Shown: positions 19,640 to 44,454 of the stretch, one piece after another
Numbering within the stretch: position 1 is the first letter of the stretch
Layout: each line of letters begins with the position of its first letter
From: Candidatus Omnitrophota bacterium
Lineage (GTDB): Bacteria; Omnitrophota; Gorgyraeia; Aquiviventales; Aquiviventaceae
DNA: 58,503 bases
Assembly (NCBI GenBank): GCA_016190215.1
Contig: JACPRA010000024.1
Coordinates: 1-58,503 of the forward strand
Direction of reading: 5' to 3'
The notes under the pieces: model-generated
The model's input: the letters and a program-made list of their open reading frames with translations, nothing else
The model's database searches: none
Told to the model about the DNA's origin: nothing
Translations under genes and position numbers: made by a program

Positions 19640-19657
19640 CTATGACGGGCGTCATAG
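19640..19657. promoter_or_regulatory. Crp/Fnr-type palindromic site 1
   Basis: CTATGAC-GGGC-GTCATAG; TAGGAT lies 21 nt downstream on the minus strand. Confidence 0.8.
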
Positions 19658-19684
19658 AGCCGCTCTTGGACGGGTGCGAGCCGC

Positions 19685-20410
19685 TTAGGAAGCGAGGCGG
19701 GGGGTCCGCCGCACAAAAATCTCTTGGCCGGCCTGGTCATCGAGGGCCAGCTCGGTCTCGCCCACCCGCACCACCAGCGCCGGGTGCGTTTGGCACAACC
19801 GGATGGGCCGGCCCGGCGCCAGGCCGAAGGCGCTGAGGCGCTGAAGGTAGGCGTGCCGCACGGTATGGATAAACACAATCTGCGCGGTTTCGCCCAGCGG
19901 CAAGCGGGCGACGGGAACGACGAGGGGTTCCACCGTCGCGCGCGAGGCCTGGCAACAGCGGCTCCGGGGAATGGCGCGGCCATGCGGGCAGCTGGGAGGA
20001 TGGCTCAAGAACAGGCAGACCGCTTCGGTCACCTCGGCATTGAGGATATGCTCGACTTGGCAGGCGGTGGATTCCAGGGAGGCATCCGAGACATCGAGCA
20101 GCACGTGGAGGAGCACCTCGGTCAGGCGGTGGCGCCGGACCACCTCCTGGGCCTTGAGCCTCCCCGCCTCGCTCAATCGAATATGCGGCCCCTCCGCCAG
20201 CAGCAGCCCGTGCTGCACCATGGCCTCAATGGTGTCCTGCTGGACGGCATGGTCCGGCTCAATGGGATGCGGCAAAAAACACCGCAGCTGGGTCGGCAAT
20301 CGGGCGCGATCCAAGGGCTCCAACCCGTCTTCGGCCGCGGTCCAGCAGAGTTCCAGCAATTCTTCGATTTGCTCGCGCGTGCTCGTCATCATCGTGGCCG
20401 GCAGGCGCAC
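19685..20410 (-). CDS. DtxR/MntR-family metal-dependent regulator with C-terminal FeoA domain
   Basis: EVVRRHRLTEVLL, ACQVEH, HPPSCPHGRAIP, LQRLSAFGLAPGRPI. Confidence 0.88.
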   Translation of the reverse strand: MRLPATMMTSTREQIEELLELCWTAAEDGLEPLDRARLPTQLRCFLPHPIEPDHAVQQDTIEAMVQHGLLLAEGPHIRLSEAGRLKAQEVVRRHRLTEVLLHVLLDVSDASLESTACQVEHILNAEVTEAVCLFLSHPPSCPHGRAIPRSRCCQASRATVEPLVVPVARLPLGETAQIVFIHTVRHAYLQRLSAFGLAPGRPIRLCQTHPALVVRVGETELALDDQAGQEIFVRRTPRLAS

Positions 20411-20577
20411 GCCTGCCAGCGCTCCTTAAACCAATTGACCAGGCGCGATTCCGGCGCCCACTCGTATCCGCACTGCGGGCAACGGGCCAGGCGGCACCCG
20501 GACGCGAGGGGACATTGCCGGCAGGCCCACACGGGCTCCGTCCGGTCCCACCACGCGCCGCACAGCGGACAGTTCAT
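20389..20577 (-). CDS. Small Cys-rich FeoB-associated protein
   Basis: MNCPLCG..ACRQCPLASGCRLARCPQCGYEW; ATGA-coupled to feoB. Confidence 0.8.
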   Translation of the reverse strand: MNCPLCGAWWDRTEPVWACRQCPLASGCRLARCPQCGYEWAPESRLVNWFKERWQACACRPR

Positions 20578-22532
20578 AGCGCCACCTTGAGGGCGGAGAG
20601 CACGCGAAACAGCAACCCGCCGACCAGAAACGCCACCCCGAACACAAACCCGGCCATGAGGTTGGCGAGCTTCCAGCCCCGTTCTTTGACCATCATGAAG
20701 TACTGGGCGATGCACGGAACGAAGAGCGTGATCGTGACGAGACTGACGACGATCTGGACCCCGTCCAACATCCCGTTCCGCTGCAGCATAAAGAGCCCTG
20801 CCGCGCCGAAATCCCGCCGGAGAAATCCCACCAGAAACGCGCCGGTGGCTTGGGCCGGCAACCCCAGCCACGACACGATCAGCGGCCGCCCCAGGCGTTC
20901 GAGCACCGCCAGGAGCCCGGAGGCATGGAGCAGAAACAACGCCAGCGTCCCGAGGAAAAACAGCGGGACCGCCTCTTTCACGTACCACTCCACCCGGCCC
21001 GCCGTCTTGATGAGGATGTTCGACGCTTTCGGCATGCGCAGCGGCGGGATCTCATAGAGAAACGGGCTGGCGTCGCCCGGCAGGAGCCGTGAAGCGGCTT
21101 GGCCGACCACCAGGATCACCGCGAACAAGACGCCGAGCCAGATGCCCAGCGCCAGCAGCGGGCGGCCGGCCAGCATCGCCATGATGACGCCTAATTGGGC
21201 GGAACAGGGGATGCCCAGCGCCAGCAGGAGCGTCACAATCACCCGCTCTCGCTCCGAATCGAGGATGCGAGAGGTCATCGTGGCCATCGTGTCGCATCCG
21301 AATCCCAGCACCAGCGGCAGGACCGCCTTGCCGTTCAAGCCAAGCAGCCGGCAGAACCGGTTGGCCATCACCGACAGCCGCGGAAGGTAGCCGACATCCT
21401 CGAGGAATCCGAAGCAGAGAAAAAACATCCCCACGATGGGCAGGATGATCGCAAAAGCATACGGAAGCGCCATCGTCAGCAATCCATATTCACCGACGAA
21501 GAGCGCCTGAAGCCACGGCCACGGGACCAGCCCGTGGACCATCCACTGGGCCGCGGGAATGAGGTAATGCCCGAACACTCGCTCCTCAAGGAAATCCACC
21601 CCGTGTTGGGCCGCGAGATCTCCAACCAGGACATACATGAGGGCCAACACGCCGGCCAGGATGGGCAGCCCCCAGAGCGGGTGCATGGCCAGATCACCCA
21701 ACGGCTTGAGCCGCGGCAGATGCGCCGACTCCTCAGCGGTCACAACGCGGTTCACGAGCCGCTGGGCCTCGCGAAGCCTGGCGTGGGCAATGAGCCTGCC
21801 CAACCGGCTTGAGACCTGCTCTTGAGCCTGCGCGGTGATGGCCTCGAGCGCTTCGACGCTCGCGGGGTCAAGCCGCGGCTTCAACTGCTCGAGGATGTTC
21901 CGATCCCCGGCCAGCCAGAGGAGCGCGAACGCCTTGCGGGCAGGCCACGCCTCCGGCAAGACGCGCAGCATCCGGGACACGGCGTCCTTGATGACGCTCG
22001 GGTAGCGCACGCTAGCCCGAGGCCGGCACGCGTCGGGAAGCGCCCGACGCAACCGCTCCAGGCCCCATCGCTGCGTCGCAATGGTCGCCGCGACGGGAAT
22101 CCCGAGCAGCCCGCGGAGCCCCTCGAGATCAATCGCCATCCGCCGTTCCCGAGCCTCATCCGCCATATTCAGGTCCAACACCATCCGGCATCCGGCCTCA
22201 GCCAACTCCAGCGTCAGCGTCAGGGCGCGCAGCAGGTTCTTGGCATCGGCAACCTGCAGGACGATGGCGTGGTCATCCAGCAGGAGATTGCGCGCCACGA
22301 GCTCGTCTTCTGAGGACACCTGGAGGCTGTTCAAGCCGGGGGTATCGCAGACGCGGAAGGTCCGGCCCTCCACGGAGGCCGAGCTTCGTGACACCGTGAC
22401 GGTCGTGCCGGGGTAATTTGAGACGGTGGCGTAGCAGCCGGTGAGCAATTGAAAGATGACGCTTTTCCCAACGTTGGGATTGCCGGTCACAATGAGGGTC
22501 GCGGCGTCCTCTACCGTGGCAGGAATCGTCAC
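20574..22532 (-). CDS. feoB: Ferrous iron transporter B
   Basis: GNPNVGKS, NYPGTTV, DTPG, NMADE, GFGC, IPCSAQLG. Confidence 0.95.
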   Translation of the reverse strand: MTIPATVEDAATLIVTGNPNVGKSVIFQLLTGCYATVSNYPGTTVTVSRSSASVEGRTFRVCDTPGLNSLQVSSEDELVARNLLLDDHAIVLQVADAKNLLRALTLTLELAEAGCRMVLDLNMADEARERRMAIDLEGLRGLLGIPVAATIATQRWGLERLRRALPDACRPRASVRYPSVIKDAVSRMLRVLPEAWPARKAFALLWLAGDRNILEQLKPRLDPASVEALEAITAQAQEQVSSRLGRLIAHARLREAQRLVNRVVTAEESAHLPRLKPLGDLAMHPLWGLPILAGVLALMYVLVGDLAAQHGVDFLEERVFGHYLIPAAQWMVHGLVPWPWLQALFVGEYGLLTMALPYAFAIILPIVGMFFLCFGFLEDVGYLPRLSVMANRFCRLLGLNGKAVLPLVLGFGCDTMATMTSRILDSERERVIVTLLLALGIPCSAQLGVIMAMLAGRPLLALGIWLGVLFAVILVVGQAASRLLPGDASPFLYEIPPLRMPKASNILIKTAGRVEWYVKEAVPLFFLGTLALFLLHASGLLAVLERLGRPLIVSWLGLPAQATGAFLVGFLRRDFGAAGLFMLQRNGMLDGVQIVVSLVTITLFVPCIAQYFMMVKERGWKLANLMAGFVFGVAFLVGGLLFRVLSALKVAL

Positions 22533-23743
22533 CTCGATCGCTCCGCCGCCCTCGCCAACGCCGCCGGCTTGCCTGCCCCGCGGGCCGTCAAACCCGGCAC
22601 GCGATCCGCCGCCGTCCGCAGCGCGGCGACACAGCAGTCAATCTCCTCAGGGCGCGTGAAATACCCGGGGCTGATTCGGATCGTTCCCTTGGGAAGCGTC
22701 CCGATGGCGTGATGCGCCCCCGGCGCGCAATGCAACCCGGCCCGCACCGCAATCTGGTGCGCCTCATCCAGCCACGCGGCCACGGCGCCGGGCTCGCAAC
22801 CCTCGACCGTCACCGACACGACGGCGACGCGGTCCGCCAACGCGGCAGGTCCGTAGACGATGAGGCGAGGGTCCGCCCGACACCCCTCCAGCAAGCGCGC
22901 CGTCAGCGACAGTTCATGCCGGCGAATCCACTCGACTCCATATTGGCCGATGAATTGGAGCGCGGCGCGCAAGCCGGCCAGCCCCAGCGTGTTCGGCGAG
23001 CCGGCTTCCATGGCATAGGGCCAGACCTCCGGCTGCAGCGGCAGCTCGGAGAGCACCCCGGTCCCCCCCTCGCGCCACGGGCGGAGCGCCGCCCGAGGCC
23101 CAACGTACAACCCCCCGGTCCCGGGCGGGCCGAGCAGCGCTTTATGGCCGGGGAATGCCAGCAGATCAATCCGGCTGCCCTGCACATCAATCGGGACCGC
23201 GCCGGCCGTTTGCGAGGCATCCACCAAGAACAGCCCCTCGCGCGCCCGCACGATGGCCCCGATGTCCGCAATCGGCTGCAGGGCTCCCGTCACGTTTGAG
23301 GCGTGGAGGACCGCGACCAATCTGGTCCGGACCGCCAAGGCCCGCCGGATCTCGTCCGGATCCACCACGCCTTCCGGGGACACCCCGACGCGCGTCACGC
23401 GGATCACCCCGTCCTGCTCAAGACGGTTGAGCGGGCGGGCCACCGAGTTGTGCTCCGCAACGGTCGTGACCACGTGATCGCCCGGCCGAACGCTGCCCTT
23501 AATCGCCATATTGAGGGCATCGGTCGCGTTCAACGTGAAGGCGATGCGCTCCGGCGCCTCGGCATGAAACAACTCGTTCAGCAGCCGGCGGGTTTCTTCC
23601 AGCAGCCCGTCGGCTTCGCGCGCCATCCGGTGGCTGCCCCGCCCCGGGCAGCCGCCATAGCGCTCCAGCGAGACGCGCAGCTGCTCATACACGCGAGCCG
23701 GTTTTGGAAACGAGGTGGCGGCGTTATCCAGATAGACGGCCAT
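22529..23743 (-). CDS. Class V PLP aminotransferase, cysteine desulfurase family
   Basis: YLDNAATSFPKP, EHNSV, HASNVTG, FPGHKALLGP, RAGLHCAP. Confidence 0.88.
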   Translation of the reverse strand: MAVYLDNAATSFPKPARVYEQLRVSLERYGGCPGRGSHRMAREADGLLEETRRLLNELFHAEAPERIAFTLNATDALNMAIKGSVRPGDHVVTTVAEHNSVARPLNRLEQDGVIRVTRVGVSPEGVVDPDEIRRALAVRTRLVAVLHASNVTGALQPIADIGAIVRAREGLFLVDASQTAGAVPIDVQGSRIDLLAFPGHKALLGPPGTGGLYVGPRAALRPWREGGTGVLSELPLQPEVWPYAMEAGSPNTLGLAGLRAALQFIGQYGVEWIRRHELSLTARLLEGCRADPRLIVYGPAALADRVAVVSVTVEGCEPGAVAAWLDEAHQIAVRAGLHCAPGAHHAIGTLPKGTIRISPGYFTRPEEIDCCVAALRTAADRVPGLTARGAGKPAALARAAERSR

Positions 23744-23970
23744 CAGTAGTAGCGCCGCGCCTCCCACAGCAACAGGGCCGCCGACAGCGCCAGGCATCCC
23801 AGTCCGACCCACAGGGTCACGGTCAGCGGCACGTCATAGGTTCCGATGCGCAGGGGGACGCGGACCACGAGCCGCGCCAGATGGAGCAGCCCCGCGATGC
23901 CGAAGAATCCGGAGAGCCATGTCGCCCACCAACATCGCGACCACATCCCGCCGCCCATCACGCGGCGCAC
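23743..23970 (-). CDS. Small two-TM membrane protein
   Basis: Two hydrophobic segments; stop overlaps the desulfurase ATG; start may be 23946. Confidence 0.65.
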   Translation of the reverse strand: MRRVMGGGMWSRCWWATWLSGFFGIAGLLHLARLVVRVPLRIGTYDVPLTVTLWVGLGCLALSAALLLWEARRYY

Positions 23971-25715
23971 TCCCCGGTCTCAGATGCCAACTGGAAGGGC
24001 TCGCTGGCGCCCAAATCCACGAAGAGCGACGCGTCGGAGGCGGCATCGCTCACGTCCGCCGTCTCACGAAGCAGGCGCCCGACCGCCTCAAGGCCGACCC
24101 GGTCCACCGCGGCGGAAAACGTTTCGCCGGGGCGCTTCTGCTCGTCGTACCACCGCACCAACCGCGTGAGGGCTTCCGGCGCTCGACGGGCCGGGACCCT
24201 GGCCAGCCGCTTGCCGAACGTTGCCGCGCCTTCCCCTGCCGACCCGCCGACCAGGATCTGATAGCCCGGAAGATACCGGCCGCCGACTTTGATGGCCGTG
24301 CCGAAGCATCCGATGTCGGCGATGAGGTGGTGGCCGCAGGAGTTCGGACATCCGGAAATCTTCACCGACACCGGCGCATCCGCCAGCGATGACAGGCCGT
24401 TGTGACAGAGCGCTTCAACGGCTTGCGCCAGGCCTTTCGGGTGCGTCATGGCCGACAGGCAGGTATCGGCGCCGGGACAACGCGTGACGTCCGCCAGCCG
24501 CCCGGCGGATGATTGCGCCAGCCCCATCCGATCCAGCGCCTCATACACCTGAGCGAACCGCGAGCCGGGCACGTCGCGGAGGAGGAGATTCTGGGTGGCC
24601 ATGCAGCGAACCCCTAAGGCGTGCTCTCTCGCGAGCTGCGCCACCCCGCGAAGCTGCGAAGCGGAGAGATCCCCGAGGGGGACCCGAACGATCACGCTGA
24701 GCCACCCGGCGCGCCGCTGCGGAACCACGTTCGTCAGCCGCCACTGAGGCGGGGCCCCGGCCGGAAGGGCTTCATCCGCGGCGTGGTCCCTCGACGTGGC
24801 TCGGGATGGTGAGCCTGCCGAACCACCGCCGGCTTCATCGTCCGCCGTCTCCACATCGGGAGGCAGCGCGCTGAGCATGCCGCCGGGCTGCGTGGCCCAC
24901 ACCAGCGATCGCTCCCGCACGACCGCGTCCTGGAACGCCTCCCACCCCAAACGCTCGACAAGGAATTTCAGCCTCGCGCGAGCCCGATGCGTCCGCTCGC
25001 CCAGCCGGTCAAACACCCGCAACGCCGCCTCGATGGTCGGCAGGAGCAGCGTCGCGTCCGTCCATGGCTCAAGCAGCCGGGCGGCGCGGGGCGCGGAGCC
25101 GAGGCCGCCGCCGAGGTAGATCCGGAACCCCCGGATGCCGTGTTGCCGCGCGGCCACCACCCCGATATCGTGAATCGCGGTCCGGGCATGGTCCGTCCGG
25201 CAGCCTTCAAAGGCGATCTTCACCTTGCGCGGAAGCAGCTGGGTGAGCGGATTGCGCAATAGATACTCGCTGACGGCGCGCGCATAGGGGGTGATGTCGA
25301 ATGGCTCCTCCCTCGACACGCCGGCCCAGGGGCAGCAGGTGACATTGCGCACGACGTTGCCGCTGGCCTCGCGGGTGGTCAACCCGGCACCCGCCAGCAT
25401 GCGCAGCAGCGCCGGCAAGCGCTGCCGTTGCACGCCGTAGAGCTGGACGCTCTGGCGTGTCGTCAGGTGGCAAGACCGCGTGGGTGTCAGGCTCTCGCAG
25501 ACGTCCGCCAAACCGTCCAGGTGCCTCGGCTGGAGGAGGCCCAGCGGAATGCGCACCCGCACCATGTGCGCGCTGGTGAACCCTCTCATCCGGTAGATGC
25601 CGTAGTGCAACCGCAGCGTCCTGAACACGTCGGCGTTGAGCCGGCCCTGCTCAAACCGAGCGAGCTGCCCGGCGAAGTGAAGGAATTCTGCGTCAACGAT
25701 CGCGCGCTCATCCAT
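23958..25715 (-). CDS. Second siroheme/[4Fe-4S] nitrite/sulfite reductase paralog
   Basis: HLTTRQSVQL, LPRKVKIA, RCPGADTCLSA, SGCPNSCGHH; same GECAA C-terminus as 4728-6521. Confidence 0.87.
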   Translation of the reverse strand: MDERAIVDAEFLHFAGQLARFEQGRLNADVFRTLRLHYGIYRMRGFTSAHMVRVRIPLGLLQPRHLDGLADVCESLTPTRSCHLTTRQSVQLYGVQRQRLPALLRMLAGAGLTTREASGNVVRNVTCCPWAGVSREEPFDITPYARAVSEYLLRNPLTQLLPRKVKIAFEGCRTDHARTAIHDIGVVAARQHGIRGFRIYLGGGLGSAPRAARLLEPWTDATLLLPTIEAALRVFDRLGERTHRARARLKFLVERLGWEAFQDAVVRERSLVWATQPGGMLSALPPDVETADDEAGGGSAGSPSRATSRDHAADEALPAGAPPQWRLTNVVPQRRAGWLSVIVRVPLGDLSASQLRGVAQLAREHALGVRCMATQNLLLRDVPGSRFAQVYEALDRMGLAQSSAGRLADVTRCPGADTCLSAMTHPKGLAQAVEALCHNGLSSLADAPVSVKISGCPNSCGHHLIADIGCFGTAIKVGGRYLPGYQILVGGSAGEGAATFGKRLARVPARRAPEALTRLVRWYDEQKRPGETFSAAVDRVGLEAVGRLLRETADVSDAASDASLFVDLGASEPFQLASETGECAA

Positions 25716-25908
25716 GAGCTGACGCTGGCTGGGGGGCTTGCTTGCGGCGCGCGCGCACGATGCGTTCCGCCTGGAGCCAATCCTCGACATCGCGGCCGTC
25801 CGTTCGCCCACGCTGTTCATACAAAGCGTGGGCGACACCGGCGATTTCATTGGCAAGGGAGTCCTGGCGCGGCTTCCGGCCCTGCGGTGATGATGCGGAA
25901 CGTGGCAT
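25708..25908 (-). CDS. DUF2934-like small protein
   Basis: IAGVAHALYEQRGRTDGRDVEDWLQAE; AGGAGG RBS. Confidence 0.8.
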   Translation of the reverse strand: MPRSASSPQGRKPRQDSLANEIAGVAHALYEQRGRTDGRDVEDWLQAERIVRARRKQAPQPASAHG

Positions 25909-25998
25909 CGAGCCTCCTGAGGTTACGGCGTCACCTGCGCGATCCAAGAATACAGCATAAGCCTTCGGAGGGAGCGTAGCGGTTTCGTGAGGCGGGCA

Positions 25999-26016
25999 CT
26001 ATGACCGGCGTCATAC
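25999..26016. promoter_or_regulatory. Crp/Fnr-type palindromic site 2
   Basis: CTATGAC-CGGC-GTCATAC; TACGCT lies 20 nt downstream on the minus strand. Confidence 0.8.
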
Positions 26017-26053
26017 AATCGTTCCCCGCCGGGTCATGGGAGAGGGGTGAAAG

Positions 26054-26083
26054 CCCGGCGAGGCCGAAGCCGGCCTCGCCGGG
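26054..26083 (-). terminator. Hairpin after nirK
   Basis: Perfect 13-bp stem CCCGGCGAGGCCG with a 4-nt loop, followed by CTTTC on the minus strand. Confidence 0.65.
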
Positions 26084-26092
26084 TGACACAAT

Positions 26093-27142
26093 CTAGGGAT
26101 GCACGAGACACCCGGCGCAGGTCGGCGCATCGTCCTGCGACAGGTAAATGTCATGCCGCGGTTTGCCGTCCACCTGCAGAAATCCCACGCCCCCTTTTTC
26201 CACCCGGAAGATGGCGTGGTCCACCAGCGTGTAGGTGCCAGGCACCTCCACGCCGAACTCGACGACGGTCGCTCCGCCGGCCGGCACGAGGGTCGTTTGG
26301 ATGCTGCGGGCGGGCGGGCTGATGAGATCGGCCTCGCGATAGACGCGGTCGAACACCTCCCCGATGACGTGGAAGGAGGAAATGAGGTTCGGCCCGACGT
26401 TGCCGAAGTAGATGCGCACCCGCTCGCCGGTCTTGGCCGTCAAGGCGCCTTCGCCCATCAAGGCGCCGACTTGGCCGTTGAACACGACGAACCGGGGGTG
26501 TTCCAGCGCCCCCTGTTCATGGGAAAACTCCAAGTGCGTCGCGCCCTCCGCCGGCTCCTTCGCGTAGAACTCGCTTTGCAGCACGTAGAACTCCCGGTCC
26601 ACCGGCGGCAATCCCGCCTTCGGCTCCACTAGGATCAATCCATACATGCCGTTGGCGATATGATCCATCACCGGCGGCGCGGCGCAGTGATACACGAACA
26701 ACCCGGGGTGCAGCAGCTTGAACCAGGCCACCCGCTCCTCGCCCTGGGTCACGGTGGTGACCGTCGCCCCTCCGCCGGGGCCGGTCACGGCGTGGAGATC
26801 CACGTTGTGCGGCATGCCGCTGCCGTCGCTGTTGGTGAGGTGGACTTCCAGGGTGTCGCCCTCGCGGGCTCGAATGAAGGGGCCCGGCACGTGATCGTTG
26901 AAGGTCCAAAAGGTGTAGGTGAGGTCGCTGGAGATGCTCGCCCTCTTCATTCCGGCATCCAACCGGACCCGCACCACCGCGGGTTGGCGCCGGGCGATCG
27001 GGGGAGGCACGGCCGGAGCAAACGTCAGGACCGCGTCCTCGGGCGACGGAGCGGGCTTCGATTTCGACTTCGCCAGCGCTGCCGGCAAGCCCAGCATGAC
27101 GGCCATCACGCCGATCAAGGCAATCAGGACGTACCGCCGCAT
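26093..27142 (-). CDS. nirK: Copper-containing nitrite reductase
   Basis: Signal peptide, PHNVDLHAVTG, YHCAAPPVMDHIANGMYG, SSFHVIG, LVDH; AGGAGG RBS. Confidence 0.93.
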   Translation of the reverse strand: MRRYVLIALIGVMAVMLGLPAALAKSKSKPAPSPEDAVLTFAPAVPPPIARRQPAVVRVRLDAGMKRASISSDLTYTFWTFNDHVPGPFIRAREGDTLEVHLTNSDGSGMPHNVDLHAVTGPGGGATVTTVTQGEERVAWFKLLHPGLFVYHCAAPPVMDHIANGMYGLILVEPKAGLPPVDREFYVLQSEFYAKEPAEGATHLEFSHEQGALEHPRFVVFNGQVGALMGEGALTAKTGERVRIYFGNVGPNLISSFHVIGEVFDRVYREADLISPPARSIQTTLVPAGGATVVEFGVEVPGTYTLVDHAIFRVEKGGVGFLQVDGKPRHDIYLSQDDAPTCAGCLVHP

Positions 27143-27194
27143 CGAGCCTCCTGGTTGAGTGACATGCCGCAGACGGGAAGACACCGGGGACGAA

Positions 27195-27392
27195 CTATGA
27201 CGCAAACGGCCAGCACCCGCCATCCATCGTGAACGCGCATTCCTTGCCGAAACAGTCGAGGTCCTTGTCCAGGCAGTTGACGATCTTCCAGGCGCCGTCG
27301 GGCGCCTTGGTCAAAATAGCCCATACCTCGCGCTGCATGAGCGCGCATCGGCACGGCTGGTATTTGACCTGCGTCGACTGGGACGCCTCCAT
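27195..27392 (-). CDS. Small 4-Cys protein, paralog of 11308-11508
   Basis: AAGGAGGG RBS; first gene after palindromic site 3; REVWAILTK..WKIVNCLDK..CF..CAFT..GGCWPF. Confidence 0.82.
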   Translation of the reverse strand: MEASQSTQVKYQPCRCALMQREVWAILTKAPDGAWKIVNCLDKDLDCFGKECAFTMDGGCWPFAS

Positions 27393-27440
27393 CGCTTCCC
27401 TCCTTGTTGAGGGCAGCATATCCCGCCGGCGGACGCGTGA

Positions 27441-27458
27441 CCATGACGGTGGTCATAT
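27441..27458. promoter_or_regulatory. Crp/Fnr-type palindromic site 3
   Basis: CCATGAC-GGTG-GTCATAT; TATGCT lies 20 nt downstream on the minus strand. Confidence 0.8.
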
Positions 27459-34454: not shown

Positions 34455-34516
34455 GGCGCTTCTCGGCTATCATAGCGGAAAATCACCACGCGCACGGTGA
34501 AAACTACCGGACACGC

Positions 34517-36888: not shown

Positions 36889-37328
36889 TACGACTTCGAA
36901 ACCACAATCTCGTCTCCCCGCACGTGCACTTGGTAGGCCTCAAGCGGCCTGGGGGGCGGTCCGGAGACGACCTGGCCGTTGAGGTCGAACTTGCCGTTGT
37001 GGCAGGCGCACCAGATGCCGCTCGCTTCCTCGTTGTACTGGACGGTGCAGTTCAGGTGGGTGCACACGGCGGAAAACGCCCGGAGATCGCCGTAGGGCGT
37101 ATTCACCAGGATCGCCGGGCGATTGCCGAACCGAAAGATCCGGGCGGTGTTGGTCGCCAGCTCCCCCACCTTGGCGGCCACGACGCTGGACACCGTCACC
37201 TCGCTGAGCCGCGGAGGAGCGAGATAGCGCGCCACCGGATAGAAGGCCGCCCCGAAGAGGGCCAGCACCCCACCCTTCAGCAGATACCGCAAAAATGCCC
37301 GCCGGCTGACGAATTCCTTGGGGCACAT
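36888..37328 (-). CDS. Rieske [2Fe-2S] subunit
   Basis: Tat signal SRRAFL, CTHLNC, WCACHNGKFD, GPPPRPL. Confidence 0.93.
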   Translation of the reverse strand: MCPKEFVSRRAFLRYLLKGGVLALFGAAFYPVARYLAPPRLSEVTVSSVVAAKVGELATNTARIFRFGNRPAILVNTPYGDLRAFSAVCTHLNCTVQYNEEASGIWCACHNGKFDLNGQVVSGPPPRPLEAYQVHVRGDEIVVSKS

Positions 37329-39430
37329 CAAAACTTCTGCGACACCTCAAACCAGAGGACGTGAGCGGTGTATTCGCCACCCTCGACGTTTTCATTCGGG
37401 TTATAGGTGTAGAGGTTGTACTCGGCCCCGACGGACGTATCCTGCAGCTTCACCGGCGACCATTTCACGCCGGTCGTGAGATCGAGCTTATGGAAGTCGG
37501 CCCCGTACGGCATCGCGGTATTGGCAAAGTCATTGAAGTTCTCCGCCCAGGAGTACTGCATGGTGCCGTTCAGCATCACGTTGGGCTTGAACGCATAGTC
37601 CGCGCCGAACATCCAGGTGTTCACATCCGCATTAAACGCCGGGATGGTGTACACCGGGAGGTTGCTCCCGGGATTCATCGACGTCAACCGCGCCGGCGTG
37701 GTCATCGAGGCGGTCTGCCGCGAAAACGTCGCCGTGGTCACCAGGTCGCGCGCCGGCTGCAGCATGACGTCGAACGTGTAGATATTGGAGAGCGACCCGG
37801 TTTTGGCGATGGACTGGCTTTCGGCTCGGGTCGCGTACGTGTCCGCCCGAAGCTGGTAGCGGAAGGACGGCCGAAACCACCGGCAGGGCTTGAGTGTGAT
37901 CCGCGTGGAGAACTCATCCGTGTGGGTGCTTTGCCCGTCGAAGAACGCCGAGCGGGCGCCGGAGGCTACGGTTTCCCGCTGATCGTCATAGTCGTTGTTA
38001 TGCACCCGATGCCGCACCTGGGAGGTGAGATCGAGGAACGGCCAGGGGTTCGTCCGCCCGCCCAACGTCCAGGCGCTGCGTTGCACATGCGTCACGGTCT
38101 CTCGCGTAAAGACCTCCGTCGCCACCGCATCGTTGCCGGTATCCGGGCCGTCCAGGCTCTGGCGATCCTCCCGCAGCAGCATGCGGGATTGCTCAAACTC
38201 CAATTCCGTGTACAGCGCTGTCCGCGGGACGCCGGTGAATCGCAGGGACAGCCCCTCCCCCCACCGCGCCGTTTTCGCATCCGCCAGCGTCACCTCTTGG
38301 TGATCCATCACTTGATCGAAGGCCTCGGGAGAAGACACATATTCCGAATACCACGGATAGACGGAATTGCCGTGGCGCGTGATGACCTCGGATTTGAGCT
38401 TGGCCCCGAAGCTGACCGTCTGCCACGGGTTGAAGGTGACGTGCTGCACCCAGGCGTGCGAGTCGTAGTCGTTGTCCGCCCGGGCGTTGATTTTGTTTTC
38501 GCCGCGCGAGAAGTTCGTAATGACGCCGGCCGCGTTCGTCTCCGTCATCGTTTCCGTCTCGCGGTTCTTCAGATGGTTGAAATGATAGCCCGACGACATC
38601 AGCACCTTGTCTTCCAGGAAGCTGCGCTCGCCTCCCAACGTGGTGGCCAAGAGGATGGCTTGCGGTCCTTGATTCTGCTGCCGGACCTTCGTGTCGGACG
38701 CCACCCCCGTGTTCGCCAGGTACCGCTCCTCCCGCAGGGTCTCGATGCGGGTAAATTCCCACCGCTGCTCCCCGTGCACGTTAAACCCGGCGAGGTCGTC
38801 TTTCTTCGCCTTCACGACAAAGGAGTCCACGGTCTCATTGACCTCCTGCCAGGACGGCCCGATGTTGCGCGCCTCGCCGACTTCCTTCACCGACGTCCAC
38901 GTCAGGCGCGATTTGGCGCCCTCTTTGAACTCCCGCTCATATTCCAACGCCAGCTCCGGCCAGCCCTCGAGCGTCAACCCCGTCTCAAACCCGAACTTCC
39001 CGATGTCCAATCGCAGGTCTTTATCCGTGGTGGGCAATTGGAAGGTCGCAAACCGGCGATGCGCGCCGGCGCCGTTATCGAAATACTTCCGGAATTCCGA
39101 GTAGCCGAAGTCGAAGAACCCCACGTCCTCTTTTTTGATGGCCAGCTCCGCCCCGAAATCATTGGCGCCGATGAGGGCGTGCCCTGCTCCGGACACTTCG
39201 ATGCCGTCCGGCGACGTGAAGTGCCCGGAAGCGTCCTTGATGCCGCCCGCATAGCCGTCATTCATCCAGTGATGGGCCCGAAACTTCCCGGCATCTCCGT
39301 CCACGGCGATGTACCGCATCGGCACCACTGTGATGGAGCCCTCGGCATCTGCGGCGTCGGCCGCGCGCCCTCCCGCGCACGCGCTCACGCCCAGGACGAC
39401 CGCCACTGCCCAGCACCTTGCGGCACGCAT
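37328..39430 (-). CDS. Large outer-membrane beta-barrel, MtrB/PioB-like porin
   Basis: Signal peptide, 700 aa of amphipathic beta-strand composition, C-terminal Phe; directly downstream of an MtrA-like cytochrome. Confidence 0.78.
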   Translation of the reverse strand: MRAARCWAVAVVLGVSACAGGRAADAADAEGSITVVPMRYIAVDGDAGKFRAHHWMNDGYAGGIKDASGHFTSPDGIEVSGAGHALIGANDFGAELAIKKEDVGFFDFGYSEFRKYFDNGAGAHRRFATFQLPTTDKDLRLDIGKFGFETGLTLEGWPELALEYEREFKEGAKSRLTWTSVKEVGEARNIGPSWQEVNETVDSFVVKAKKDDLAGFNVHGEQRWEFTRIETLREERYLANTGVASDTKVRQQNQGPQAILLATTLGGERSFLEDKVLMSSGYHFNHLKNRETETMTETNAAGVITNFSRGENKINARADNDYDSHAWVQHVTFNPWQTVSFGAKLKSEVITRHGNSVYPWYSEYVSSPEAFDQVMDHQEVTLADAKTARWGEGLSLRFTGVPRTALYTELEFEQSRMLLREDRQSLDGPDTGNDAVATEVFTRETVTHVQRSAWTLGGRTNPWPFLDLTSQVRHRVHNNDYDDQRETVASGARSAFFDGQSTHTDEFSTRITLKPCRWFRPSFRYQLRADTYATRAESQSIAKTGSLSNIYTFDVMLQPARDLVTTATFSRQTASMTTPARLTSMNPGSNLPVYTIPAFNADVNTWMFGADYAFKPNVMLNGTMQYSWAENFNDFANTAMPYGADFHKLDLTTGVKWSPVKLQDTSVGAEYNLYTYNPNENVEGGEYTAHVLWFEVSQKF

Positions 39431-39455
39431 TCAGGACCTCCTCTTCTGATGATGA

Positions 39456-40631
39456 TTAATAACGCAGGTGTTCGTCAAAATTCGAGCCGTGGACCGCCGT
39501 ATGACACCCGGCGCTGAAACAGGTGCCTTGATTCAATCGGCTGGCATGGCCGGACCCGCCGATCGTCGGGAAGTTGGTCTGCGTATGGCAGCGCAAACAC
39601 AGGTTGGCATCGCGCGCGAGCAGCATCTTTTCATGGATCGACCCGTGGACCTTGTGGCAGGTCGTGCAGCCCTCGCGCAGCGCCTCATGCTCATTCACGA
39701 ACGGGCCGCGCTGGTCCTTATGGCACTTGAAGCACGTTTCGTTGATGTCCTTGAGCGAGGTGGCGGACCAGGGACGCACGTCAGGCGAGTGCGGGCTGTG
39801 GCAATCCGTGCAGCTCATCTTGCCTTCCACGACCGGATGGTGGTGGGGGAGGCGGAATTCCGCCTTCTTGTCGAGATGGCAGGCAAAGCAGGTGCTGGGG
39901 TCCTTGCTGGGATTGATGATGCCGCCCACCCCGCGTCCGCCGCCGGCGTCCACGTGCAGGCTGCCGGGCCCATGACAGGTCTCGCAGCCTTGCGCCTTGA
40001 CGTCCTCACCCGGGATGCTGATTCTGGCGTGGGTGGATTGTTGAAATTCCTTGAACTGCTTGACATGGCAGGCCGCGCAGGTTTCCGTGCCGACATACTC
40101 GGCGGGCGCCTTCTCAGGCTCCTCGGCCTGGGCATCCGGCACCAGCCAGTCCTCCCAACGGGAGGACGGCTTGGGCGGTGCGTCGTCCGCGGCGGGGAGG
40201 GCCGGCTCGGGCACGGCGGGAGCGGACGCCTCGGGAGCGGCGGCAGGTTCGGCCGACGCCTGCGGCTGGCCGACCGGCCGAGAGTCGGGATCGCTGGGAT
40301 CCGTGCCGGCCTTCAGCTCCTCGCCGATCGGCGCGCCGTCCGCATCCGGATCGGCCTGCTCCGCCGCTCGCAGATCCTCGACCGTCAGCTTCTTGGCGCC
40401 GAGATCCGCCTTCCATTGTTGCAAGGCCCGACCATAGCCGTTGAGGTCGCCTCGCTTGCCGATGGCGCCCTGGTGGCAGATGGTGCAGGAGTACGCCTTC
40501 GGGTCTTTATCCGGATAGGCTTGCTTGTACGTTTTGAGGTTGTCAATCGTCGCCCAAGCGGATGGACTGAAGCTGAGCCAGCAGCCGGCCAGGAGGAGAC
40601 CGGCGACGCCGGCGCGATGGGATGATGCCAT
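39456..40631 (-). CDS. DmsE/MtrA/PioA-like periplasmic multiheme cytochrome with an extra N-terminal heme domain
   Basis: YVGTETCAACH, GCETCHGPGSLH, MSCTDCHSPH, RGPFVNEH, CHTAVHGSN; 8 CxxCH plus one Cx4CH. Confidence 0.85.
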   Translation of the reverse strand: MASSHRAGVAGLLLAGCWLSFSPSAWATIDNLKTYKQAYPDKDPKAYSCTICHQGAIGKRGDLNGYGRALQQWKADLGAKKLTVEDLRAAEQADPDADGAPIGEELKAGTDPSDPDSRPVGQPQASAEPAAAPEASAPAVPEPALPAADDAPPKPSSRWEDWLVPDAQAEEPEKAPAEYVGTETCAACHVKQFKEFQQSTHARISIPGEDVKAQGCETCHGPGSLHVDAGGGRGVGGIINPSKDPSTCFACHLDKKAEFRLPHHHPVVEGKMSCTDCHSPHSPDVRPWSATSLKDINETCFKCHKDQRGPFVNEHEALREGCTTCHKVHGSIHEKMLLARDANLCLRCHTQTNFPTIGGSGHASRLNQGTCFSAGCHTAVHGSNFDEHLRY

Positions 40632-40784: not shown

Positions 40785-40819
40785 GAAGATTTATATGTAT
40801 TGTAATGTAATCTTCATGC
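40781..40819. promoter_or_regulatory. AT-rich inverted repeat between the hemerythrin gene and the cytochrome operon
   Basis: GCATGAAGATT-N17-AATCTTCATGC. Confidence 0.55.
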
Positions 40820-41488
40820 TTTACAACTGTTTTTCAGCCCAATGTCGTCGGGGCCCAAGAACGCTTCGACCCCGGCCGCGCCCTCCAACCGCCGAAGCAG
40901 CGCCTCCGAGTCCAGCCCGTGGCGCCACGCCACTTCATCCAGGCAATCGCAGCCCTCATACGGCAGGCTGACGAACAGCTCGTCAAACACCGGCCGGGTG
41001 GTGGGAAACGCCCGGACGATCCGATTGACCGTCATCGCCTCATTCAGCGGGATGTCTGACGCCGGCGCGGACATGCCGCCGCTCTCCTTCAGCAACCGTT
41101 CCAGCAACGGAAACAATTCGGCCTCCTCGTCCGCCATATGGCGGCGCAGCCCGTCAATCACCTGGCGGAGCATCGCAGCGAGCTTCGGAAACGGGATAAC
41201 CTCCTCCTGCAGGAACAACCGGTGCAACTCCCGGAGCCGTTCCGGTTCGTCGCGATGCTCCACGTGCGAGCGGTCGAGCGCGGCGCGCTCGCCCGCCGTC
41301 AGCGTGCGGCAGCGAGCTACCAGCTCCTCCTCTCGCCTCAGGTGATCCCGTAATTGGCTGGCTAAAGAATGAACCATTTCGCGCAGGACAAACCACGTCC
41401 CTTCCCCCATCCGCAGGGCGACATCCATGACGTCCAATTTCGAGCGCAGCACCTGATGGTCGCGCCGCAGCCGTTCAATCGGCTCCAT
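40814..41488 (-). CDS. Hemerythrin-domain protein with C-terminal ScdA_N/DUF542-like domain (Ric-like)
   Basis: RRDH..DHLRREE..VEH..RHMADEEAELFP, then MTVNRIVRAFPTTRPVF..GCDCLDEVAWRHGLD. Confidence 0.75.
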   Translation of the reverse strand: MEPIERLRRDHQVLRSKLDVMDVALRMGEGTWFVLREMVHSLASQLRDHLRREEELVARCRTLTAGERAALDRSHVEHRDEPERLRELHRLFLQEEVIPFPKLAAMLRQVIDGLRRHMADEEAELFPLLERLLKESGGMSAPASDIPLNEAMTVNRIVRAFPTTRPVFDELFVSLPYEGCDCLDEVAWRHGLDSEALLRRLEGAAGVEAFLGPDDIGLKNSCKA

Positions 41489-41546
41489 CGGGAGGCTCCT
41501 TCACCTTGATGGCTGACCCAAGGCTAACACGGCACAATTCCGCGCT

Positions 41547-41564
41547 CCATGATGTGGATCATAG
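41547..41564. promoter_or_regulatory. Crp/Fnr-type palindromic site 4
   Basis: CCATGAT-GTGG-ATCATAG; TAGCCT (with extended TGn) lies 20 nt downstream on the minus strand. Confidence 0.78.
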
Positions 41565-41594: not shown

Positions 41595-42242
41595 TCAGGC
41601 TTCGGCGAGCTGCTCCAGCGCGGCAGGCTGGAGAATAGTCGTCGAACCGCGGGAGGAGGAGAGGATCTTGCGTTTTTTCAGATCGCTCAGCACGCGGATG
41701 GCGGTTTCCACCGTCGTGCCGGCCAATTCGGCCAGTTCGTGCTTGGTTAGGGGGATCGTCGTGCCGAACTTGCCGGACAGCGTCAGCAGCGCTTGCGCGA
41801 GGCGCCGCTCCACCGGATCGTAGAGCATGCAGCTTTTATGCTCCACCTGGCGGAGCCGCTCGCAGAACACGCCCAGCGCGTCCTCGAGGAACGTCGGGTT
41901 GCGCTGCAGGAGATCATGGAACGCGGCGATCGGAATCCGGAGGACGACCGTGTCCGTCGCCGCGATGGCATTGACGGGATAGGGTTGCCGATCCAGCGCG
42001 GGCAGGCAGCAGAAACTTTCGCGCGGCGTCATCACGCAGGTGGTGGCGGCCTGCCCCCCTTCCAAAAACTTCATCAGGTGCACGCGGCCGGTCCTGACGA
42101 CCCACACGGCGTCCGCCGGATCGCCGGCGCGGAAGACGGTTTGCCCCTTGGCAAAACGCTGCTCGCGGGACATGGCGGCGAGCCGCGTCCGTTCAGCCGG
42201 GGTAAGGCGCTTGAAGATCTCAACTCCTTCGAGCATGGGCAT
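41595..42242 (-). CDS. Crp/Fnr-family transcriptional regulator
   Basis: cNMP-binding fold (FAKGQTVFRAGDPADAVWVVRTGRV), VERRLAQALL, HTH LTKHELAELAGTTVETAIRVLSDL. Confidence 0.93.
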   Translation of the reverse strand: MPMLEGVEIFKRLTPAERTRLAAMSREQRFAKGQTVFRAGDPADAVWVVRTGRVHLMKFLEGGQAATTCVMTPRESFCCLPALDRQPYPVNAIAATDTVVLRIPIAAFHDLLQRNPTFLEDALGVFCERLRQVEHKSCMLYDPVERRLAQALLTLSGKFGTTIPLTKHELAELAGTTVETAIRVLSDLKKRKILSSSRGSTTILQPAALEQLAEA

Positions 42243-42547
42243 GCTCCAGCATAGCGTTCCTGATCGAGGCGGTCAAGCCAGCCGGCCACCACCAGGTCCG
42301 AATCCTGCGCGACGATCTCCACCCACCCGGCGCGGCTGAGGGCCTCCACCGCCATCATCACAAAAATGGCGGGATGCTCCAGCTCGCGGATGAGACACCG
42401 CAGGGTGGCCGATCCGTTCGCTTCCACCCACGCCAGGATTTCGCTTTCGACAGACCCCAACTCGCTCACGACCAGCTCGTGCCGCGCCCCGTTCTCGTCC
42501 GCCGCTGTGCCCCGCCGGTTCACGGAGCAGATCAGATCGCTCATCAT
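42074..42547 (-). CDS. Small winged-helix protein (DUF2582-like); reading frame runs into the Crp/Fnr gene
   Basis: ELGSVESEILAWVEANGSATLRCLIREL..VMMAVEALSRAGWVEI fills the pckG-crp gap; 3' end uncertain. Confidence 0.55.
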   Translation of the reverse strand: MMSDLICSVNRRGTAADENGARHELVVSELGSVESEILAWVEANGSATLRCLIRELEHPAIFVMMAVEALSRAGWVEIVAQDSDLVVAGWLDRLDQERYAGACPCSKELRSSSALPRLNGRGSPPCPASSVLPRGKPSSAPAIRRTPCGSSGPAACT

Positions 42548-42646
42548 CGCCGCCCCCCGCGTTGCGCCGGACATCCTGATGCGCCCGCACCGTCTCTCAG
42601 CGCCCGCCCTTGTGACGGAGTCTCGTCCTCCCTCCAATCCCCGCGC

Positions 42647-44404
42647 TTACCCGCTGCCTTTCAACCGATCCATCAACGCCTGCTGTTCTTCGCGAAGCGC
42701 GCCTGGAAGCCGCTCGCCGAATTTGGAAAAAAAGTCGGTTTGCCGCCGCGCCGCGTCCCGCCAGGCCGCGACGTCCACGTCCAAGAGCGTCTGAAGCCGC
42801 TCCGGCGGCAGGTCCAAACCCTCGGTGTCCAGCGCAGCCGGGGTGGGCAGGTAGCCGATGGGGGTGGCCGCCGCCTCCGCGCTGCCGTGGCAGCGGTCCA
42901 GAATCCACTTGAGCACCCGCATGTTGTCGCCGAAGCCGGGCCAGAGGCAGGCGCCCCGCGCATCCGTCCGGAACCAATTCACCCGGTAGATCCTCGGCGG
43001 CGACGCCAGCCGCGTCCCCATGTCCAGCCAATGGGCGAAATAGTCGGCCATGTTATAGCCGCAGAACGGCAGCATGGCCATGGGGTCCCGCCGCACCACG
43101 CCGGTGGCGCCGGCGGCGGCCGCCGTCGTTTCGGAGTTGAGCGTGGCCCCCAGGTAGACGCCGTGCCGCCACGTGAAGGCTTCATAGACGAGCGGCACCA
43201 GCGTGGACCGGCGGCACCCGAACAGGATCGCAGAGATCGGCACGCCCTCGGGGTCGTTCCAGGCCGGAGAGGTCACCGGGCACTGCGCTATCGGCGCGGT
43301 GAACCGGGCGTTGGGGTGCGCGGCCTTCTGGCCGCTCGCCGGATCCCAGGGCTTGCCCTGCCAATCCGCCATCCCGCGCACGTCGGCGGGACGATCCAAT
43401 CCTTCCCACCACACGGTCCGGTCGGCGGCCAAAGCCACGTTGGTGAAAATCGTGTTCGTGGCAATCGTCGCCATCATGTTGGGGTTCGTCTTCGCGCTCG
43501 TGCCCGGTGCTACCCCGAAGAACCCGGCTTCCGGGTTGACGGCATAGAGCCGCCCATCGCGCCCGACGCGCAGCCACGCGATGTCATCGCCGACGCACCA
43601 CACTTTGTAGCCGCTGAACCGCCCCGCGGGCTTGAGCATGGCCAGGTTGGTCTTGCCGCACGAGGATGGCAAGGCGCCGGCGACATAGGTGGTCCGCCCG
43701 TGGGGGTCTTCGATCCCCATCACGAACATGTGCTCGGCCAGCCACCCTTCCCGCCGGCCCTGCGCGCCGGCCAGCCGCAGCGCCACGCACTTTTTGCTCA
43801 GCAGCGCGTTGCCGCCGTAGCCGGAGTTGATGCTCCAGACGGCGGATTCCTGCGGAAAGTGGCAGATATAGCGCTGCTCCGGATCCAGCGTCCCGGTCGA
43901 ATGGACGCCCTTGAAAAACTCGGCGGAGGCGCCCAACTGCTCCAGGGCGACGGCGCCCATGCGGGTCATCAGGCGCATATTGACGGCGACGTAGACGCTG
44001 TCGGTCAGCTCGAAACCGACGCGGCTGAACGGCGAGCCGGGAGGCCCCAGGAGATACGGCACGACGTACATCGTCCGCCCGCGCATGGCCCCCTGGAACA
44101 GCCGCCGCAGCGTCGCGTGGGCGTCGTCCGGCGCCATCCAGTTGTTCGTCGGCCCGGCATCGTCGCGATGGGGCGTGCAGATGTAGGTGGATTGCTCGGT
44201 CCGCGCGACATCGCGGGGGTGGGAGCGATGCAGGTACGAGCCGGGGTGGCGCTGCGGGTGCAGCGGCAGCAACTGCCCCTGCGCCACGCCCTCAGCCAGC
44301 AACCGCCGGTATTCCTCGTCGGAACCCTGGAGCCACACGACCCGATCCGGCGCGGTCAGCCGCGCGGTGGCGTCAACCCATTGCCGCACTGCGGGATTGT
44401 TCAT
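42647..44404 (-). CDS. pckG: Phosphoenolpyruvate carboxykinase (GTP)
   Basis: DVARTE, SGYGGNALLSKKC, WLAEHM, PSSCGKTNLAM, VGDDIAW, HPNARF, RRDPMAMLPFCGY. Confidence 0.96.
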   Translation of the reverse strand: MNNPAVRQWVDATARLTAPDRVVWLQGSDEEYRRLLAEGVAQGQLLPLHPQRHPGSYLHRSHPRDVARTEQSTYICTPHRDDAGPTNNWMAPDDAHATLRRLFQGAMRGRTMYVVPYLLGPPGSPFSRVGFELTDSVYVAVNMRLMTRMGAVALEQLGASAEFFKGVHSTGTLDPEQRYICHFPQESAVWSINSGYGGNALLSKKCVALRLAGAQGRREGWLAEHMFVMGIEDPHGRTTYVAGALPSSCGKTNLAMLKPAGRFSGYKVWCVGDDIAWLRVGRDGRLYAVNPEAGFFGVAPGTSAKTNPNMMATIATNTIFTNVALAADRTVWWEGLDRPADVRGMADWQGKPWDPASGQKAAHPNARFTAPIAQCPVTSPAWNDPEGVPISAILFGCRRSTLVPLVYEAFTWRHGVYLGATLNSETTAAAAGATGVVRRDPMAMLPFCGYNMADYFAHWLDMGTRLASPPRIYRVNWFRTDARGACLWPGFGDNMRVLKWILDRCHGSAEAAATPIGYLPTPAALDTEGLDLPPERLQTLLDVDVAAWRDAARRQTDFFSKFGERLPGALREEQQALMDRLKGSG

Positions 44405-44436
44405 GCGCTCATTCTAGCACGGAGGCCTGGGGAGTT

Positions 44437-44454
44437 TCATGACGGGCATCATAG
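44437..44454. promoter_or_regulatory. Crp/Fnr-type palindromic site 5 with leaderless promoter
   Basis: TCATGAC-GGGC-ATCATAG; TAGAAT (with extended TGn) 20 nt downstream, then 6 nt to the pckG ATG. Confidence 0.8.

Follow-up and report, generated by a model that had tools for sequence, protein, structure and literature searches.

Background

Escherichia coli FNR and Pseudomonas ANR are global anaerobic activators which bind the box TTGAT-N4-ATCAA and control iron, haem, molybdenum cofactor, pyruvate:ferredoxin oxidoreductase (PFOR) and N-oxide genes; in Pseudomonas, ANR stands above DNR in a cascade. CRP contacts cyclic AMP (cAMP) through E72, R82, S83, T127 and S128, CooA is a haem-based CO sensor with its cofactor in the effector domain and no N-terminal extension, and the box of NtcA is GTA-N8-TAC. 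Bacteria of the phylum Omnitrophota are uncultured and mostly ultra-small, and their physiology is inferred from gene lists. Here we describe five palindromic boxes of the form TATGAY-N4-RTCAT and the Crp/Fnr-family regulator gene lying among them (41595..42242, minus strand) in contig JACPRA010000024.1 of the Candidatus Omnitrophota assembly GCA_016190215.1; the whole stretch of 58,503 nucleotides (nt) is called the window. The boxes are likely to belong to a real regulon of FNR-like class II activation, conserved in relatives, whose box variant would be read by the cluster's own Crp/Fnr regulator.

In the sections available, a comparative study (PMC1274295) lists the consensus wyTTGACnnnnGTCAArw for HcpR, CTTGATnnnnATCAAG for DNR, ctTTGcgnnnncgCAAag for NnrR and GTAACnnnnGTTAC for HcpR2, and names the base before TGA (position 3) as specificity-determining, with G where Arg180 is present and T where it is not. 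Our literature searches retrieved no description of a box of the form ATGAC-N4-GTCAT or its variants (TTGAC-N4-GTCAA was found for Pseudomonas ANR) and no account of Crp/Fnr regulation in Omnitrophota. In the main text of an Omnitrophota survey the words Crp, Fnr and "transcriptional regulator" do not appear, and its supplements may list regulators (PMC10066038).

Boxes and predicted promoters

The pattern TATGAY-N4-RTCAT has seven strand matches in the window, corresponding to five sites, two of which are symmetric enough to be found on both strands. Shuffled sequences give an expectation of 0.04, and none of 100 shuffles reached seven. Read letter for letter, the five 18-mers lie on the minus strand at 19640, 25999, 27441, 41547 and 44437, exactly where the initial annotation had placed five non-canonical boxes, with the hexamers and spacings it had given. 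Box 1 (CTATGACGCCCGTCATAG, 19640..19657) follows the stop codon of the DtxR/FeoA gene and is spaced by 21 nt from the -10 hexamer TAGGAT (19618..19613). The spacing is 20 nt in the other four: box 2 (GTATGACGCCGGTCATAG, 25999..26016) is located after the nirK stop codon, with TACGCT at 25978..25973, box 3 (ATATGACCACCGTCATGG, 27441..27458) 13 nt after the ccsA stop codon, with TATGCT at 27420..27415, box 4 (CTATGATCCACATCATGG, 41547..41564) after the regulator stop codon, with TAGCCT at 41526..41521, and box 5 (CTATGATGCCCGTCATGA, 44437..44454) ahead of the start of the phosphoenolpyruvate carboxykinase (PEPCK) gene, with TAGAAT at 44416..44411. Since TAnnnT occurs in the genome at a background of 0.0020 per position, five boxes with such a hexamer at a fixed offset are not a product of chance. 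The boxes are intergenic, as had been claimed: on a map of open reading frames (ORFs) and Pfam domains each stands behind the stop codon of one gene and ahead of the start of the following one, towards which it is oriented. With the hexamers taken as -12 to -7, the box centres would fall at -41.5 (-42.5 for box 1) from the predicted start. The sequencing runs containing the stretch comprise four DNA runs of one study, and no RNA run is listed.

A weight matrix, the training sites of which include the five window boxes themselves, scores these at 22.7-27.9 in gene orientation; the next best match in the window reaches 16.3 and lies inside coding sequence. Eight other intergenic gaps tested in the window score 7.4 at most and hold no box, and on these gaps the matrix finds no box before the genes of NrfA, NnrS, the second NirA/Sir protein and the 391-aa and 699-aa cytochromes.

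The assembly (G000; 0.98 Mb, 39 contigs, 65.7% GC, about 79% complete, with the window as contig C19) contains nine palindromes ATGAY-N4-RTCAT, and none of the reversed control pattern. Six of the nine carry TAnnnT at 20 or 21 nt in a single orientation, towards the downstream gene. The sixth promoter-type site, C32:4927, is located ahead of a 1252-aa PFOR, and the regulon in this assembly thus has at least six promoters and extends beyond the window. The three palindromes without a -10 hexamer (C18:14215, C19:50320 and C23:67688) lie inside coding sequence, judged by context. The crude automatic gene mask marks C32:4927 and box 5 as coding, owing to overlapping spurious long ORFs, and positions were therefore judged by eye and by Pfam-supported genes. 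Given that about 89% of the genome is coding on the crude mask, six palindromes between genes versus three within genes is a strong intergenic bias; equal frequency in coding regions, which the initial annotation had named as a ground for giving up the motif, is not what is seen. Among weaker sites found in the assembly with a relaxed half-site pattern, six candidates were examined, selected for little overlap with coding sequence or for a proximal half resembling a site, and all of them lack a -10 hexamer at the right distance. Canonical palindromes TTGAY-N4-RTCAA number four in the genome, none with class II spacing; they are coding, or form the -35 element of ordinary TTGACR-17-TAnnnT promoters.

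The regulator protein

Five matches to HTH_Crp_2 were detected in the assembly, and only the window gene passes the cut-off. Of two matches to the cyclic nucleotide monophosphate (cNMP) domain, the other is part of a 762-aa frame on C27, a contig without any of the five HTH_Crp_2 matches. One Crp/Fnr-type regulator is encoded in the roughly 79% complete assembly, and it lies inside the box cluster. The protein has 215 aa and the domain order of the Crp/Fnr superfamily, with PF00027 (73 bits) and PF13545 (57.6 bits) both above their cut-offs. Its AlphaFold model (34 homologues, mean predicted local distance difference test score, pLDDT, of 83) has the expected secondary structure and fold, and the best fold matches are all Crp/Fnr proteins, with an identity to any solved structure of about 31% at most. 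The database protein for this gene has 192 aa and starts 23 codons later; the 215-aa form is more likely, because homologues align from residue 3.

The NCBIfam equivalog models of Crp/Fnr proteins all remain far below their cut-offs: Fnr (NF008365) with 42.1 versus 228, CRP with 40 versus 266 and NtcA (TIGR03697) with 46.4 versus 245. There is likewise no curated-model match to the DNR, NnrR or HcpR branches, and a search of protein clusters yielded generic Crp/Fnr clusters only. The structure of DNR matches the regulator at E 1.6e-7 and that of CooA weakly, at E 1.3e-5. NtcA is further set apart by its box, and CooA by the absence of CO-metabolism genes among the targets found here.

Aligned with CRP and FNR of E. 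coli K-12, the regulator has the recognition helix TTVETAIR where FNR has LTVETISR and CRP has CSRETVGR, so that V178, E179, I182 and R183 correspond to V208, E209, S212 and R213 of FNR. The altered helix (VETAIR versus VETISR) of the initial annotation is borne out by this alignment; as a peculiarity of this regulator it is not, for VETxIR is widespread, with Ile in 93 of 127 related cluster representatives. The protein shares with FNR and ANR the fold, the domain order and the helix pattern V-E-x-x-x-R, and with CRP the fold and the conserved Glu181 and Arg185. Its identity to FNR is 24%; the N-terminal extension with Cys16/20/23/29 is missing, as is Cys122, where Leu/Arg are found. The cAMP ligands of CRP are replaced as well, E72, R82, S83, T127 and S128 aligning with C79, P89, V90, V133 and E134, and Arg180 of CRP corresponds to Val.

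Instead of the FNR ligands, Cys69, Cys78, Cys79, Cys127, Cys138 and His55 are kept without exception in 120 homologues (66-81% identity), with the helix TT[V]ET[T/A]IR throughout. This Cys-rich clade comprises at least 120 homologues at 66% identity or more, clustered at 90%. Cys69, Cys78, Cys79 and Cys127 align with S62, G71, E72 and A121 of CRP, which line the cAMP effector pocket and the pocket face of the C-helix. By analogy with CooA, ligation by Cys and His (Cys78/79, His55) is conceivable.

Box specificity

The full consensus of the box, yTATGAY-N4-RTCATAG, keeps the TGA-N6-TCA core shared by FNR and CRP and has A at the position where FNR has T and CRP has G, as the initial annotation had pointed out. 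In 20 sites found with the strict pattern this A is present by construction. In a looser search A occurs in 7 of 11 distal half-sites and T never, and the proximal half is always TCAT. Position 3 is T in the boxes of HcpR1 and DNR, and the HcpR box differs from the Omnitrophota box at one base per half-site, according to the consensus sequences given in the comparative study (PMC1274295). For the Crp/Fnr field, this adds a third base at a known specificity position, alongside the Ile of the recognition helix. The A more plausibly goes with Ile182, which stands in place of Ser212 of FNR and Gly184 of CRP, than with the CRP-180 position, because Val is found there, as in FNR. Ser212 of FNR is taken by us to contact the base pair before TGA.

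Of the two flanks, the promoter-proximal AG (G in 19 of 20 sites) is better conserved than the mirror-image distal one, which may reflect polymerase contacts. Together with the rigid spacing to the -10 hexamer, this asymmetry would also suit a two-part promoter, RTCATAG plus TAnnnT, of an alternative sigma factor. Such a promoter is highly improbable: a spacer of 20-21 nt is generally too long for the sigma-70 family, the distal half is conserved as an inverted repeat, and the motif tracks the regulator across genomes (see below).

Conservation in relatives

Box and regulator were followed in the 34 other genomes of the family (35 with G000); related contigs are labelled Candidatus Omnitrophota and come from groundwater metagenome-assembled genomes. 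Summed over the 35 genomes, TATGAY-N4-RTCAT has 147 strand matches versus 15 for the reversed control, i.e. about 10-fold more, and the motif is met once or more in 31 of the 34 relatives. Orthologues of the regulator with 60-75% identity are present in 25 of the 34 (E<=1e-50). From the sites listed in relatives 101 surrounding loci were taken, containing 115 distinct palindromes. In 84 of these TAnnnT occurs 19-22 nt downstream in at least one orientation; by spacing, 65 hexamers lie at 20 nt, 16 at 21 nt, five at 19 nt and one at 22 nt. The class II Crp/Fnr geometry proposed for the window is supported by these -10 spacings, 79 of the 115 palindromes having a hexamer at 20 or 21 nt.

A site overlapping the -35 region could alternatively serve as a repressor operator, at which a Crp/Fnr or other protein would block RNA polymerase, and box 5, the only box scanned for this, has a weak -35-like ATGAAA 18 nt before TAGAAT. 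We regard repression as improbable. The ordinary promoters of the organism carry a clear TTGACR as -35 element, the fixed phasing of the 79 sites is a need of class II activation that would be superfluous for an operator, and the general precedent of the family (FNR, ANR, DNR) is activation from this position.

First downstream ORFs in the relatives were clustered and their representatives named by Pfam; about two dozen singletons are unnamed or doubtful ORF calls. Hemerythrin/RIC-like proteins are the most frequent recurring target, with 13 box-preceded sites, followed by ATP-type PEPCK with six. Four sites each were found for FeoB, glutamyl-tRNA reductase (HemA), GltD-like Fe-S flavoproteins, XRE proteins and paralogous Crp/Fnr regulators, three each for NirA-like proteins, NirJ/AhbC-like radical SAM proteins, cNMP-only small proteins and GNAT/CoA-ligase proteins, two for MoaA and one for GTP-type PEPCK. 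A POR subunit, a molybdopterin oxidoreductase, a multihaem cytochrome, ResB and a Rieske protein are single box-preceded cases, and in locus L036 nosZ and nosD follow a box-preceded XRE gene. These recurrent homologues bear out a regulon over PEPCK, nitrite reduction and Fe/S/haem supply, as proposed in the initial annotation. The clearest sign that the link between box and PEPCK is functional and selected, rather than inherited sequence, is that the non-homologous ATP and GTP forms are box-preceded in different genomes. Eight hemerythrin upstream regions, chosen for carrying a site, share no invariant positions other than TGA, TCAT with one G, two positions of the -10 hexamer and the start codon ATG.

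Co-occurrence of box and regulator

Genomes of the family with an orthologue have a mean of 2.76 promoter-type sites (69 sites in 25 genomes), those without 1.1 (10 sites in nine genomes). The four genomes without an orthologue that are at least 90% complete have 0, 0, 0 and 1 such sites. As the genomes are kin and not independent, and two of the "absent" ones (G013 and G022) hold fragments of the regulator gene, this co-occurrence is supporting evidence and not a formal test. The only other genome of the same genus, G001 (92% complete), has neither a regulator (E<=1e-20) nor a motif match, which suggests that the whole system was lost or gained within a genus.

Among 250 more genomes sampled from the phylum, ten have a regulator match at E<=1e-30, seven of them with at least 52% identity. 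A promoter-type box lies within 1.5 kb of the orthologue in five of these seven, in loci of 45-69% GC. On these sequences, the pair of box and regulator appears to be older than the family and independent of base composition, since it is met in other families over this range of GC content.

The palindrome might be read by a protein other than the Cys-rich regulator, which would then be a mere neighbour: the small XRE protein whose gene follows box 1 or, where relatives have one, a Crp/Fnr paralogue. An XRE gene is itself a recurrent target (four relatives), and its product would bind some palindrome. One or two paralogous Crp/Fnr genes with 35-44% identity stand next to the orthologue in most relatives (e.g. 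L036 7438-8040, L048 6694-7269); their helices read RWETSIR or TTESAIR, and of the five cysteines Cys78 alone is kept. Another reader is nonetheless unlikely, for the TGA-N6-TCA core at -41.5 is a Crp/Fnr signature, the number of sites tracks the presence of the orthologue, and G000 has boxes while no paralogue was found in its assembled part.

Several points weigh against a class II regulon of the Cys-rich regulator as we describe it. Sites persist without it: G013, G018, G021, G022 and G046, in which no orthologue was detected, have one to four promoter-type sites each, a point that also favours another reader, and paralogues with an E-T/S-x-I-R helix could read the same box, so that the Cys-rich protein is not the sole candidate where they occur. 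As to the sites themselves, 31 of the 115 palindromes in relatives lack a -10 hexamer at 19-22 nt, and five of 13 hemerythrin homologues in the first locus set have no relaxed site directly upstream (eight have one), some of the five being second genes of operons. The sequence logo is partly built in, most site counts having used a pattern that fixes the core bases, and in the looser search C or G replaces A in 4 of 11 promoter-distal half-sites. The link between Ile and A is a correlation only, Val at the CRP-180 position being as in FNR and VETxIR being widespread. Finally, the -41.5 geometry depends on predicted -10 hexamers, the putative cofactor is read from the alignment alone, and a sixth cysteine, Cys124, present in 118 of 120 homologues, is Gly in the protein of G000.

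Proposed mechanism and comparison with known systems

In the class II regulon that we favour, a dimer of the regulator would bind the palindromes under the inducing condition. The box would replace the -35 element, centred about 41.5-42.5 bp upstream of the predicted start, and polymerase would be recruited to promoters without a -35 element. At least six units would be switched on in this genome: PEPCK, with possible read-through to the regulator; the hemerythrin/RIC-like gene, together with the cluster for multihaem cytochromes and cytochrome c maturation that follows; the small Cys-rich ORF with nirK; the unit of nirA-like, cysteine desulfurase type, feoB and dtxR-feoA genes; the XRE and NirJ/AhbC-like unit with its packed distal genes; and PFOR. 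The input signal would probably be the loss of O2 or the appearance of nitric oxide (NO), and its sensor a cofactor with thiol ligands, held by the invariant cysteines where CRP has its cAMP pocket. The leading candidate, proposed tentatively and with rather less than even confidence, is an Fe-S cluster on thiol ligands that would respond to O2 or NO; a haem ligated by Cys and His would come next. In relatives, the boxes before Cys-less paralogues suggest a cascade like that from ANR to DNR.

A more far-reaching combination, which we find possible though somewhat doubtful, is a new kind of Crp/Fnr sensor. A redox- or NO-labile Fe-S cluster or other thiol-ligated metal in the cAMP pocket (Cys69, Cys78/79 and Cys127, with Cys138 at the hinge) would couple O2 or NO directly to the C-helix, the protein would in relatives head a cascade activating Cys-less paralogues with the same helix, and Ile182 would shift the specificity base to A, away from T or G. 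For the Crp/Fnr field, a clade whose effector domain has five invariant cysteines, and which is without the FNR ligands, is in any case an addition.

Compared with described systems, the locus appears as a known kind of system with a new box variant, a view well supported by the comparison. As in FNR and ANR systems, the box is a 14-16 bp palindrome centred near -41.5 (predicted here), and feoB, hemA, moaA, PFOR and genes of nitrite and nitrous oxide (N2O) reduction are among the targets. HcpR, DNR and NnrR act from FNR-like boxes on nirK, nosZ and dnrN/RIC-type targets and, according to the comparative study (PMC1274295), lack a cysteine motif, in contrast to the five invariant cysteines of the Omnitrophota clade. 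Targets of this NO-sensor type are likewise met here, with boxes before nirK and hemerythrin/RIC-like genes and, in L036, before an XRE gene with nosZ and nosD behind it. Central carbon genes (PEPCK, PFOR) are an addition with respect to HcpR, DNR and NnrR. The target set would thus join the FNR/ANR kind (iron, haem, molybdenum cofactor, PFOR and the phosphoenolpyruvate (PEP) node) with the DNR/NnrR kind (nirK, nosZ and RIC-like repair).

From a conserved regulon one learns which genes belong together in a single programme for the cell itself. In this case the programme covers nitrite and N2O reduction, repair of NO damage, uptake of ferrous iron, provision of haem, Fe-S and molybdenum cofactor, cytochrome c maturation, multihaem cytochromes and the PEP/pyruvate node. 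By gathering N-oxide, cofactor, cytochrome and PEP/pyruvate genes, it speaks for organisms with genomes of 1-2 Mb that can change facultatively to anaerobic life with N-oxide respiration. The initial annotation had called the regulon self-contained, which it is not: to the sixth site before PFOR on C32 come the incompleteness of the assembly and the wider regulon of the relatives.

Genes behind box 5 and expression of the regulator

Box 5 is followed by a GTP-type PEPCK (42647..44404, minus strand; Pfam PEPCK_GTP 537 bits), a 105-aa ORF without a Pfam family (42273..42590, minus strand) and the regulator, 2.2 kb behind the box. A sigma-70-type promoter without a box, TTGACC-17-TATGCT (42248..42276, minus strand), precedes the regulator, and similar promoters are found in relatives, TTGAC[GC]-17/18-TAnnnT lying ahead of the regulator in 8 of 18 of their loci. 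In other relatives the regulator stands directly after VIT1, at the end of a string running from box and PEPCK(ATP) to VIT1. Positive autoregulation, claimed in the initial annotation from the place of the gene behind box 5, is not established, given this distance, the box-free promoter and the possibility of read-through. A scan between box 5 and the regulator found no terminator-like site, and for the expression of the regulator no more can be claimed than a basal promoter, with read-through from box 5 as a possibility.

The ATG of PEPCK lies 6 nt after its -10 hexamer (44404-44416) and the regulator start 5 nt after its own (42242-42253); because of these short distances both mRNAs are probably leaderless. 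Many box-driven ORFs of relatives likewise start within about 15 nt of the -10 hexamer.

Genes behind boxes 1 to 4

The gene directly behind box 4 encodes the hemerythrin/RIC-like protein (40814..41488, minus strand). Packed behind it, from 27471 to 40631 on the same strand, are genes of multihaem cytochromes, a Rieske protein, a NapC-like protein, a cytochrome b fusion, ResB and CcsA. The string includes box-free gaps of 183 and 272 nt, and its co-transcription is a conjecture from the packing. Extracellular electron transfer, which the initial annotation had named as a possible part of the regulon, is derived from this packing too; in relatives multihaem, ResB and Rieske genes are boxed once each. 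Inside the multihaem cluster, a 700-aa protein without a Pfam or NCBIfam family (37328-39430, minus strand) has counterparts at the corresponding place in two relatives, with about 55% conservation.

Box 3 precedes a 65-aa Cys-rich ORF (27195..27392, minus strand) without a Pfam or NCBIfam match and the copper nitrite reductase NirK (26093..27223, minus strand; TIGR02376 325.6 bits, cut-off 296.3). The Cys-rich ORF recurs with 46-55% identity in the loci of three relatives, once with its own box, and adjoins hemerythrin or radical SAM genes in two of these three. A GC-rich hairpin (26050-26085, minus strand), directly after the nirK stop codon and ahead of box 2, looks like a terminator separating the nirK unit from the box 2 unit.

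The box 2 unit (19685..25908, minus strand) consists of a 66-aa ORF, a NirA-like sirohaem reductase, a class V aminotransferase of the cysteine desulfurase type, FeoB and a DtxR-FeoA fusion. The 66-aa ORF comes first after the box (25708-25908, minus strand) and has a strong AGGAGG ribosome site. The frame of the NirA-like gene differs from that of the 66-aa ORF, and its start is probably later than the listed TTG at 25856.

The tightly packed box 1 unit (11665..19601, minus strand) contains an XRE helix-turn-helix gene (19377..19601, minus strand, from the Pfam/NCBIfam map) as the first gene, a NirJ/AhbC-like radical SAM protein, an NMO/FabK-like protein, a ketoacyl synthase and two more radical SAM proteins. 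Its distal part (11665-18174, minus strand), gapless behind the first genes, comprises the NMO/FabK-like protein, the ketoacyl synthase, a 758-aa radical SAM protein and a B12-binding radical SAM protein, and may belong to a lipid or other biosynthetic pathway. The lipid remodelling of the initial annotation is drawn from the gene packing behind box 1 in the window, and the membership of these genes in the regulon hangs on that packing.

Other features of the window

Further downstream (4728-10195, minus strand) lie NnrS, a pentahaem NrfA-type nitrite reductase (PF02335, 444 bits) and a second NirA/Sir-type reductase, all box-free. A nirA-internal match at 6314 was rejected as a regulatory site; it is a conserved coding motif that is also present inside nirA of relatives. 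Counted with NirK and the NirA-like protein, three to four nitrite-handling systems are encoded in this assembly of about 1 Mb. Upstream of the regulon, a cluster resembling type IV pilus and type II secretion systems (T2SS) extends over 45266-53793 on the minus strand, with PilM/N/O, pseudopilins and T2SS F and E; the coding palindrome at 50320 corresponds to the N-terminal methylation segment of a pseudopilin.

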